This document shows, piece after piece, positions 226 through 2,554 of a stretch of DNA of 4,613 nucleotides. Source of the DNA: a virus (taxonomy: Duplodnaviria > Heunggongvirae > Uroviricota > Caudoviricetes). The DNA lies in the IMG/VR virus record IMGVR_UViG_3300007747_000079; one strand, 5' to 3'. A model generated the notes under the pieces. That model did not search any database and was not told the DNA's origin. It saw only the letters and a program-made list of their open reading frames with translations. A program made the translations under genes and the position numbers. Position 1 is the stretch's first letter, and every line of letters begins with the position of its first letter.

Positions 226-1154
226 TGCTGGATCAGGAAACCGCAAAGGCAGCACGAACCGATTCAGGTTATATCCTTCGCGCACCGAGACGAATGCGGG
301 TTGCTGATGCCGTTGCTCAGTATATGCGGGTGCCCATGGGGGCAGGGAACTCAGTCCCGTGGGATCCGCTGGTGGCACCGTATGTTATTGAGCCGATGAA
401 CTGCCTGGCCTCGCGTGAATACGACGCAGTGATATTTGTTGGCCCGGCACGAACCGGCAAGACTATCGGCCTGATTGACGGCTGGGTGATTTACAACGTG
501 ATTTGCGATCCTGCTGATATGCTGATCATTCAGATGACGGAGGAAAAAGCCCGCGAACACTCCAAAAAACGACTCGCCAGAACGTTTCGCGTCAGCCCGG
601 AAGTGGTCAGTCGCCTGAGTCCGAACAAAAATGACAACAACGTTTATGACAGAACATTCCTTGCTGGTAACTACCTGAAAATCGGCTGGCCGTCAGTCAA
701 TATCATGTCCTCATCAGATTATAAATGCGTCGCGCTGACGGATTATGACCGTTTTCCGGAAGATATTGATGGCGAGGGGGATGCTTTCTCTCTTGCCTCA
801 AAACGTACCACAACATTTATGTCCAGTGGTATGACGCTGGTGGAGAGTTCCCCCGGCAGGGATGTGAAGGATGTGAAATGGCGACGGACTTCACCGCATG
901 AGGCTCCACCAACCACGGGTATACTGTCGCTCTATAACCGTGGCGATCGCCGTCGCTGGTACTGGCCCTGTCCACACTGTGGTGAGTATTTTCAGCCCTG
1001 CGGCGATGTGGTTGCTGGTTTCCGTGATATTGCCGATCCAAAACGTGAGCTGAACGGACGTGGGGTCTGGTTGCGGGATGGTGAATCCATCAATGCGGAT
1101 GGCAGTCGTTATGGTGATCCCCGACGCTCACGTATTGCGTCATTCTGGATGTAG
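225..1154 (+). CDS. terminase large subunit, GpA (lambda A) family, N-terminal ATPase half only; truncated, probably a disrupted gene
   Basis: The 309-aa ORF has a Walker-A-like VFVGPARTGKT and a CPHCGEYFQ motif matching the lambda gpA ACPHCGEEQY region as I recall it, with a G(V/I)WxRDG block near the end. GpA-type large terminases are about 640 aa, so the nuclease/portal-binding half is missing. The ORF ends at TAG 1152-1154 exactly where the composition turns AT-rich. Confidence 0.85.
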   Translation: MLDQETAKAARTDSGYILRAPRRMRVADAVAQYMRVPMGAGNSVPWDPLVAPYVIEPMNCLASREYDAVIFVGPARTGKTIGLIDGWVIYNVICDPADMLIIQMTEEKAREHSKKRLARTFRVSPEVVSRLSPNKNDNNVYDRTFLAGNYLKIGWPSVNIMSSSDYKCVALTDYDRFPEDIDGEGDAFSLASKRTTTFMSSGMTLVESSPGRDVKDVKWRRTSPHEAPPTTGILSLYNRGDRRRWYWPCPHCGEYFQPCGDVVAGFRDIADPKRELNGRGVWLRDGESINADGSRYGDPRRSRIASFWM

Positions 1155-1315
1155 GGTACATTTCTTACCTGTTTTTATGTTCTGGTGTCGTTTTGTAGTC
1201 TTTTCAATGAGTTGTGATTTTTTGTGTTTCCTCTCTTTACTTGATAATGAGTTAGTTTATCGCTTGTTATCGACTTGAATGGACTACATGACGGACTAAA
1301 AAATGAGGGCGACAG
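1155..1315. other. AT-rich junction: probable island boundary (attachment-site side) and integrase leader/promoter region
   Basis: A 161-bp non-coding stretch full of T-runs (gtttttatg, cgttttgtag, gattttttgtg) sits between the terminase stop and the integrase ATG. GAGGG lies 7 nt upstream of ATG 1316 as a ribosome-binding site. No convincing -35/-10 pair and no tRNA-like sequence were found. Confidence 0.35.
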
Positions 1316-2554
1316 ATGTCGGTAAAGCCATTAACCGTGACTGAAGTTAAGGGGATGAAACCACGTGAAAAGGACTATGCCGTTTATGATGGGTTCGGTT
1401 TATTGCTGAATGTGAGTAAAGCTGGTGGGAAAGTGTGGCGTTTCCGTTATAGCCATCCGATAACGAAGAAACGGCAGACATACACGATAGGGCGTTTTCC
1501 TGAATTCTCACTCGCGGAAGCACGGGAAGTACGTGATGAACTTCGGCGAATGATTGCACGTGGAGTTGATCCAGTGACAGAGAAGAAAAATCGTAAAATT
1601 GAGATGTCACTAAAAAATCTACAAACATTTGAAGCTGTTGCTAATGCATGGATCGCTTTTAAAAAGGGATCGGAATTGCGGAAACCTACGCTGTATAATA
1701 TCGAATATGAAGTATACAAATATCTTGTTCCTTTCTTTGGTAAGTACAGCATAGAGAAAATTACAGCGCCAGTAGCTATTAATGCTCTGGATGCCGTATC
1801 CGATAAGAATGCGTTGCAAAAAAAATTAATATCAAGATTAAATGAAATTATGAATTACGCTGTAAATTGTGGAGCATTGAAAACGAATCCATTACTTAAG
1901 ATAAAAACTGCATTCACAGGAAAGAAAAATAAATCATTAGCTGCACTACCTGTTGAAAGATTGCCTGAATTTCTGAGTTGGTGGGATAGTGTGCCTCATA
2001 AGTATCAAATAGCTCACAATGCACTTTTATTCCAGATATTGACAATGGTCAGGCCAGGTGAGGCGATTAAAGCAGAGTGGTCCGAGATTTATTTTGATTC
2101 TGGCTTGTGGATTATCCCCGCGCATAAAATGAAATGCCATCGTGAACATGTTGTGCCTCTCTCATCACAGGCTATTAGAATCCTAAGAACAATGCAGGAA
2201 ATAAAAAGAGGGCGTTATATATTTTTTTCCTCCAGAACAAAAGATGCTCCTATGGGAAAGAATACTATCAATACCCCAATTGCTGCCAGCAAGTTCAAAG
2301 GGATTGTAACGTTACACGGTTTTCGTTCGATGTGGAGTACGCTTTTAAATGAGGAGGGTTTTAACCCTGATGTTATTGAGGCTGCATTAGCACATAAAAG
2401 TGGTGATAAAATAAGAGATATTTATAATAGAACTACTTATTTAGAACAACGCAAAATTATGATGCAATGGGTAGGAGATTTTTTTGATGAGGCGAGAAAA
2501 GGGGTAATTAATAGATCCGGTGGTAAGAAAGGTTTGAGAATAGTAAATGGTTGA
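1316..2554 (+). CDS. int: tyrosine site-specific integrase, P4-type (arm-binding DUF4102-like N-terminus plus catalytic domain)
   Basis: The 412-aa ORF opens with LTVTEVKGMKPREKDYAVYDGFGLLLNVSKAGGKVWRFRY, the typical P4-family arm-binding start. Catalytic-domain landmarks are present: R in MVRPGE, HxxR in HGFRSMW, AHK, and tyrosine in RDIYNRTTY followed by EQRKIMMQW. RBS GAGGG precedes the ATG. Confidence 0.93.
   Translation: MSVKPLTVTEVKGMKPREKDYAVYDGFGLLLNVSKAGGKVWRFRYSHPITKKRQTYTIGRFPEFSLAEAREVRDELRRMIARGVDPVTEKKNRKIEMSLKNLQTFEAVANAWIAFKKGSELRKPTLYNIEYEVYKYLVPFFGKYSIEKITAPVAINALDAVSDKNALQKKLISRLNEIMNYAVNCGALKTNPLLKIKTAFTGKKNKSLAALPVERLPEFLSWWDSVPHKYQIAHNALLFQILTMVRPGEAIKAEWSEIYFDSGLWIIPAHKMKCHREHVVPLSSQAIRILRTMQEIKRGRYIFFSSRTKDAPMGKNTINTPIAASKFKGIVTLHGFRSMWSTLLNEEGFNPDVIEAALAHKSGDKIRDIYNRTTYLEQRKIMMQWVGDFFDEARKGVINRSGGKKGLRIVNG

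Follow-up and report, generated by a model that had tools for sequence, protein, structure and literature searches.

The DNA analyzed here, a window of 4,613 nucleotides from the Caudoviricetes virus record IMGVR_UViG_3300007747_000079, contains the gene for the large subunit of a GpA-type phage terminase (TerL, gene terL) cut off by the integrase end of a satellite island. The terL fragment occupies positions 225-1154 on the plus strand and encodes 309 amino acids that carry the Pfam GpA_ATPase domain (E = 1e-66). It closes with the codons TTC TGG ATG TAG, and the stop codon at 1152-1154 is supplied by the island. A spacer of 161 bp (1155-1315) separates this stop from a P4-type tyrosine integrase of 412 amino acids (1316-2554, plus strand), which contains the three integrase domains Arm-DNA-bind_3, Phage_int_M, and Phage_integrase and is 33% identical to the integrase (Int) of satellite phage P4. 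The gene that follows (2567-2770, plus strand) encodes a small AlpA-like helix-turn-helix (HTH) protein, a putative excisionase or activator with a weak HTH_17 match. The terL fragment, int, and the alpA-like gene all lie on the plus strand, which is the co-orientation typical of helper-embedded phage-inducible chromosomal islands (HE-PICIs). Both the truncation of a GpA-type terminase at this TAG codon and the P4-type integrase 161 bp beyond it were put forward in the original prediction for this window, and both stand.

The split terminase gene and its insertion site

Base composition breaks at the terL stop. The terL fragment has a guanine-plus-cytosine (GC) content of 53.4%, against 36% for the spacer and 38.7% for int, and comparing GC between the 160 bp before the stop and the 160 bp after it gives a significant difference (Fisher p = 5e-4). 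The predicted drop is real, but it starts from a lower level than the approximately 60% that had been estimated for the terminase side. The length of 309 amino acids was also read correctly, although the open reading frame (ORF) does not end at the G(V/I)WxRDG region as proposed: GVWLRDG runs from residue 279 (VWLRDG at 280), and approximately 24 more residues lead to the terminal RIASFWM. As a measure of the fragment, 309 amino acids is an understatement. The corresponding fragment in relatives, annotated as a terminase pseudogene without its C-terminus, has 331-333 amino acids, and that of the window is shortened by 22 missing codons. Intact TerL has 700 amino acids. Its GpA_nuclease domain is interrupted about six positions from its start, at the boundary between ATPase and nuclease.

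A megablast search with the window as query, run on 5426 complete E. coli genomes, identifies one genome, NZ_CP064847 (E. coli strain 20), with 99.5% identity across the whole window length. There, an island of approximately 10.8 kb lies within the terL gene of a lambdoid prophage and is co-oriented with it. A terL 5′ pseudogene annotated as "missing C-terminus" is followed by the island and then by a "terminase gpA endonuclease subunit, missing N-terminus", after which the late operon continues with the portal gene, the protease-capsid fusion of the helper itself, and the tail genes. The 3′ half of terL, which the original prediction proposed to look for past the island, therefore stands directly beyond its far end.

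The two junctions define the site of recombination. The left attachment site (attL) reads ...GTCATTCTGGATGTAGGGTAC... and the right site (attR) reads ...CTTCTTCCTGGATGGAGGGTCC...; the 7-bp block CTGGATG at 1145-1151 (plus strand), within the TerL Phe-Trp-Met codons, is the only block that attL and attR share between diagnostic mismatches and the only one common to attL, attR, and the uninterrupted site attB. An attachment repeat had been anticipated near 1140-1160. Seven base pairs is a typical length for the overlap region of a tyrosine recombinase. Joining the two halves at CTGGATG restores an in-frame gene of 2103 nucleotides and 700 amino acids in which GpA_ATPase (41-304) and GpA_nuclease (326-644) are both complete. 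Insertion takes place after codon 331, where the nuclease domain begins, and the GAG (Glu) codon that directly follows Met becomes the TAG stop through a T supplied by the island. Two domain-sized ORFs result: the 5′ half spans the whole ATPase domain, and the 3′ half is an ORF of 370 codons that starts at the ATG of the core and contains the whole nuclease domain (31981-33093 of the locus from NZ_CP064847). On the island side, the attL arm (1152-1315, plus strand), with the TAG stop at its start, is nearly invariant between islands in different helpers. The reconstructed junction of the excised form (attP) reads ...CTTCTTCCTGGATGTAGGGTAC..., and the right junction predicted for the element of the window is ...CTTCTTC(C/T)TGGATGGAGGG..., followed by an ORF beginning MEGPAAAYQ.

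Uninterrupted and occupied forms of the site are both present in E. coli. The joined junction region of 375 bp, counted where at least 80% of it is covered, is uninterrupted in 1334 of the 5426 genomes, many of them at 100% identity, so that the comparison with island-free genomes suggested in the original prediction returns the same terL gene intact. The occupied junction, represented by window positions 1100-1330 at a coverage of at least 80%, is found in 90 genomes, which puts the occupancy of suitable terL genes at roughly 6%. The integrase gene is found in 90 genomes too, and the equality of the two counts gives no sign of the integrase at other sites.

The junction is also constant across diverged helpers. 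Strains of O121:H19 and O111:H8 carry the same island in the terL genes of different prophages whose TerL proteins are only about 70-75% identical to the TerL studied here, with the junction at the identical position. In O111:H8, the island sits in a helper with a TerL of approximately 70% identity, and its integrase gene matches that of the window at 99.8%, which suggests that it moved recently from one helper to another. In Salmonella enterica, an element whose integrase is 75% identical lies behind a GpA_ATPase fragment of 333 amino acids and has the same junction, TTCTGGATG joined to TAGGGTACATTTCTTA. The junction is thus unchanged across three helper backgrounds and Salmonella, with a core of 6-7 bp, (C/T)TGGATG. 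The island is frequent in E. coli lineages that produce Shiga toxin (STEC; O157:H7, O145:H28, O121:H19, and O111:H8), in which a genome has as many as two copies. The host prophage of one O111:H8 strain has an antiterminator Q gene along with further genes of the lambdoid late region.

The 3′ half of terL, the shared core, and the uninterrupted alleles bear out the earlier proposal of an integrative satellite within the packaging ATPase gene of a resident prophage. The window very probably contains the attL of an approximately 10.8-kb gram-negative satellite of the phage-inducible chromosomal island (PICI) type that lies inside the GpA terL gene of a lambdoid prophage and is a helper-embedded PICI.

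Integrase lineage and attachment-site arms

Helper-embedded PICIs were described by Tommasini, Mageeney & Williams in 2023, with Eco567.11capE (11capE) of E. coli NRG857c as the founding element (PMC10111431). The window integrase is closer to P4 Int (204 bits) than to 11capE Int (25% identity, 84 bits), and 11capE Int itself scores only 69 bits against P4 Int. In a rough neighbor-joining tree, the clade of embedded integrases is sister to CP4-57-like integrases, P4 Int falls outside, and 11capE Int is the most distant, with 20-25% identity to all others.

A protein database search returns a graded series of enterobacterial relatives of the window integrase. Ten of them (39-75% identity), from E. 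coli, Salmonella, Raoultella, Pantoea, Yersinia, and Providencia, six genera in all, were inspected in context, and all ten are co-oriented directly after phage morphogenesis genes. The genes ahead of them include truncated forms of GpA TerL and of the protease-capsid fusion, a major-capsid fragment of 153 amino acids, portal genes (Phage_portal_3 and Phage_portal_2), a small terminase gene, a Pa193_gp24 gene, DUF6651, lambda-like head-tail genes, and tail genes; scaffold-like genes are represented among them. A DUF4222-primase/helicase module lies downstream in seven of the ten, several of which also have an AlpA-type or Bro-N gene; among the other three, one locus ends too early to judge and two have only AlpA, with or without Bro-N. 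More distant relatives with 31-40% identity, from Vibrio, Colwellia, and related genera, adjoin tmRNA or tRNA-Ser genes; these are the CP4-57-like integrases of the tree and, among relatives that are not embedded, the nearest. In a pattern scan of one-genome-per-species contigs, every relative found was at a tmRNA or tRNA-Ser gene and had no more than 40% identity, and the closer embedded ones came from the protein database search. There is a reasonable likelihood that the window integrase represents a second clade with systematic tropism for prophage morphogenesis genes, related to P4 and CP4-57, and that this tropism probably evolved independently.

The attP arms of published HE-PICIs contain a doubled TGTATTGC motif (tgTGTATTGCa) described as unique to these elements (PMC10111431); as a positive control, the arm-motif search recovers it in the attP of 11capE at -101/-89 and +133/+145. 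In the element studied here, its counterpart is a TTTATCGC-type repeat. Candidate arm-type sites TTTATCGCTT/GTTATCGA lie at 1256-1273, within the island-side arm of attL, and the reconstructed attP contains TTTATCGCTT at -101 and TTTATCGCTTGTTATCGA at +108 (window 1256-1273) in the same orientation. The candidate sites are conserved between islands, and the offset of the P-arm copy, -101, equals that of the first half-site in 11capE. Judged from these candidate sites, the attP arm architecture is analogous to that of 11capE, and its sequence is different.

Organization of the satellite and its relation to known elements

The island in NZ_CP064847 contains int, an HTH gene, Bro-N, HNH, an Icd-like gene, DUF4222, a primase, a single-stranded DNA-binding protein (SSB), a fusion of ClpP-type protease and major capsid protein, a second DUF1441 gene, and a small ORF. 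It shows the four-zone organization of gram-negative PICIs: two zones (integration and Bro) fall in the window, and the other two (replication and late) are seen in the 99.5% identical genome. The first DUF1441 gene belongs to the helper prophage: its 3′ end lies directly 5′ of terL in the window (58-225, plus strand; Pfam DUF1441, profile positions 107-146), and its full form, resembling a small terminase subunit (TerS), has 164 amino acids in the NZ_CP064847 annotation. The island's TerS-like protein is 68% identical to that of the helper, and its protease-capsid fusion is 56% identical. A GC-rich element of 80 nucleotides occurs once upstream of the helper terS-like gene and twice in the satellite, upstream of the capsid region and of its own terS-like gene, with 89-91% identity (19508-19587, 28066-28145, and 30601-30680 of the locus from NZ_CP064847). 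It may be cos or may serve in late regulation, and its presence twice in direct orientation within a single satellite is odd.

The AlpA-like protein has weak similarity to a protein in the matching position of 11capE, and AlpA of gram-negative PICIs occupies the equivalent position (PMC10111431). The int-alpA unit is followed by a hairpin resembling an intrinsic terminator (about 2784-2814, plus strand) with an 8-bp stem, six GC pairs, and a subsequent T-run; starting at 2784, it is the first plus-strand terminator-like site 3′ of the terL fragment. A Bro-N domain protein in the "dynamic zone" of the satellite comes next (2829-3410, plus strand; Pfam Bro-N, E = 2e-18). Divergent from the rightward operon, a small Arc/YlcI-like putative repressor is encoded on the minus strand (3534-3707), with weak, sub-cutoff matches to Arc and YlcI_YnfO; related islands have a YlcI/YnfO gene at the corresponding position. 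Next to it, at 3701-3751 (plus strand), are a promoter-like site, TTGACA-17-TACTAT, and two direct repeats of 18 nucleotides, ACATGGTAATTACC(C/A)TTG, which are candidate operators. These repeats are 30 bp apart, overlap the promoter-like site, and stand at the start of the minus-strand gene, with 0 matches expected by chance. The region from 3534 to 3751 is probably a repressor-operator switch of the satellite.

The last gene of the window (3905-4582, plus strand) encodes a homing-endonuclease-like module (Pfam HNH_3, sub-threshold AP2) fused in frame to an Icd-like gene, with the NCBIfam Icd-like match at residues 177-220 of the product. Related islands lack an HNH gene, and their Icd-like genes are only 159-204 nucleotides long; the HNH module looks like a mobile HNH insertion into the variable zone of the satellite. 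In the nearest genome, the HNH part is annotated as a pseudogene. An Rfam scan of the window at a permissive threshold gave only two sub-threshold matches at chance level.

The island is a helper-embedded PICI and, as such, an instance of a documented satellite-helper relationship rather than a categorically new one. Like 11capE, it is an island of about 11 kb co-oriented within a late gene of a lambdoid prophage, has the zone order int, alpA, Bro/regulatory, DUF4222-primase-SSB, and late, encodes a primase 87% identical to that of 11capE, and carries its own diverged copies of helper late genes. It also shares with HE-PICIs a short crossover core and the presence of uninterrupted target genes in other genomes, and the published sites include a terminase gene, the cognate of lambda A. 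The original prediction called the arrangement unusual, which is outdated, since helper-embedded PICIs, some in terminase genes, were published in 2023 (PMC10111431). The details differ: the published A-gene sites are at Terminase_1 positions 132 and 245/246, whereas the site here is the start of the nuclease domain in a GpA-family TerL, and the integrase is nearer to P4 Int and to integrases at tmRNA and tRNA-Ser than to that of 11capE. The term "GpA" is absent from the text and supplements of the 2023 paper, and the attL sequence is absent from its att files (PMC10111431). A search for an earlier description in STEC genome papers and the satellite literature found only that paper to be relevant, with no GpA site listed. 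The target family, the site, and the integrase lineage are new relative to the founding survey.

Chromosomal gram-negative PICIs such as EcCICFT073 resemble the island in their int-alpA-primase genes, Icd-like gene, late-zone capsid gene, and dependence on lambdoid cos helpers, but they integrate at tRNA genes, fis, and hpt and interact with the helper only in trans (PMC10111431), whereas this island interrupts the helper's packaging gene. Elements that interrupt genes, such as skin in Bacillus sigK and phi10403S in Listeria comK, are also comparable in that the element splits a gene that precise excision would rebuild. Here, in contrast, the gene that is split is itself part of a mobile element, namely the helper phage, and the likely trigger is the late transcription of that phage. 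The satellite phage P4 has its attachment site outside phage genes and uses P2-type phages as helpers. The island shares with it the P4-type integrase with an arm-binding domain and an alpha-type primase whose C-terminal region is 49% identical, and it differs in carrying lambdoid TerS-like and capsid homologs. A tblastn search with all P4 proteins matched only Int and alpha, with no homologs of sid, psu, delta, epsilon, or cI in the island. Two classes were considered and rejected. The island is not a P4-like satellite in the strict sense, as it lacks homologs of sid, psu, delta, and epsilon, and it is not a capsid-forming PICI, a class that has a full capsid and packaging module (portal, capsid, protease, connectors, TerS, and TerL), as its only annotated morphogenesis-type genes are the protease-capsid fusion and the DUF1441 TerS-like gene, with portal and TerL belonging to the helper.

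Proposed satellite cycle, alternative explanations, and significance

For HE-PICIs, a cis-regulatory model in which late transcription of the helper triggers excision has been proposed, and 11capE after induction shows excision of the composite, then replication, then excision of the satellite (PMC10111431). A comparable cycle can be outlined for the GpA-embedded element. Satellite Int recombines at (C/T)TGGATG, and TerL is split into the ATPase fragment and the nuclease ORF; packaging of helper DNA would be blocked while the satellite is in place. Upon prophage induction, late transcripts would cross terS and the terL fragment and continue into int and alpA. Neither a sigma-70 promoter consensus nor a terminator consensus is predicted in the 161-bp spacer between the terL stop and int, and read-through into int-alpA is possible because no terminator is predicted before 2784. 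Int and the AlpA-like directionality factor would then excise the satellite and restore terL, the satellite would replicate with its own primase, and the helper terminase would package it, guided by the satellite's TerS-like protein and the 80-nucleotide elements, which may be cos. The diverged TerS-like and capsid copies together with these elements would fit a redirection of helper packaging, and perhaps of capsid assembly, toward the satellite.

Several observations count against this reading. The window stops inside the island, before its right junction, and the structure is inferred from the 99.5% identical genome. The excised attP junction has no match in IMG/VR or metagenome contigs, searched with exact patterns and with patterns of 0-1 variable nucleotides, which is weak evidence. 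The 2023 survey required integrases to score at least 400 bits against 11capE Int (PMC10111431), and the 84 bits of the window integrase place it outside the published clade. The doubled TGTATTGC motif has no match with fewer than two mismatches in either attP arm. Because the integrase falls outside the clade and the published motif is absent, the behavior of 11capE applies here by analogy, and excision, read-through, and packaging of this element are predictions.

The helper gene of the window also carries damage of its own. In the ATPase domain of terL, alignment with the closest genome places the junction of a 66-bp in-frame deletion at 1039/1040, and the 22 codons concerned (VLASEAAYIQCPSCSGRILPEQ), which are present in relatives, include a CPSC motif that pairs with an upstream CPHC. 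A 111-bp query around the junction spans 177 bp in the best E. coli matches (all among the matches listed), and the junction has no match in one-genome-per-species contigs or in the collected related loci. The deletion could be private decay of the helper terL or an assembly artifact. It suggests that terL in this genome is decaying and possibly non-functional, a further point against an operating cycle here; if the deletion is real, TerL may be defective even after the satellite leaves, and the cis-regulatory cycle may be broken in this composite, which would then be decaying, with a satellite in need of another helper.

This decay, seen nowhere else, and the end of the window before the far end of the island are what could be cited for the deletion scar raised as an alternative in the original prediction, in which a cryptic prophage lost part of its terminase gene by deletion and the integrase island next to the scar is unrelated. 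For the junction, that explanation is rejected and retains an almost negligible probability: terL resumes at exactly the next codon past the island in the closest genome, the position of the junction is shared by diverged helpers and by Salmonella, uninterrupted alleles identical to the joined sequence are common, and integrase and occupied junction are found in equal numbers of genomes. It is very improbable that the element is instead a P4-like satellite of P2-type helpers that landed off-target in terL and is functionally unrelated to the surrounding prophage. The P4-type integrase and the P4 alpha-like primase C-terminus would fit such an origin, but the P4 genes sid, psu, delta, epsilon, and cI have no counterparts in the island, which instead holds diverged TerS-like, protease-capsid, and 80-nucleotide copies from the surrounding prophage's repertoire; an off-target event also accords poorly with the equal numbers of integrase and terL-junction matches and with the late-operon location of all ten inspected relatives.

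An immobile island could also be kept as a fixed lock that disables packaging by the resident prophage, or for its cargo, and be neither a transmissible satellite nor a regulated switch. The failure to find the attP junction in public viral or metagenome contigs and the extra damage in the window's helper gene agree with this explanation, as does a passage on "inability to detect" in the Discussion of the founding study, which appears to concern satellite particles or transfer (PMC10111431). The explanation is nevertheless unlikely, since the nearly identical integrase beside a strongly diverged TerL argues for recent movement, the element has intact ORFs for int, the alpA-like protein, primase, capsid, and the TerS-like protein, and the low occupancy of suitable terL genes is what is expected of a mobile element.

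A helper-embedded satellite at this site changes how split terminase genes may be read. Where a split terminase "pseudogene" adjoins an integrase in a prophage of E. coli or Salmonella, O157, O145, O121, and O111 STEC included, it may be an occupied satellite site rather than a product of decay, and such sites affect calls of prophage intactness and predictions of phage inducibility. The concept of helper-embedded satellites now takes in the GpA terminase family as well as a second integrase lineage. If the tropism of that lineage is confirmed, helper embedding was reached at least twice, contrary to what the results of the 2023 survey suggested, and many embedded satellites would have been missed by searches seeded on the 11capE integrase. 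With a split at the ATPase/nuclease boundary, a TerS-like gene of its own, and the 80-nucleotide elements, the GpA-embedded satellite is a tractable system for studying the timing of helper packaging versus satellite excision.

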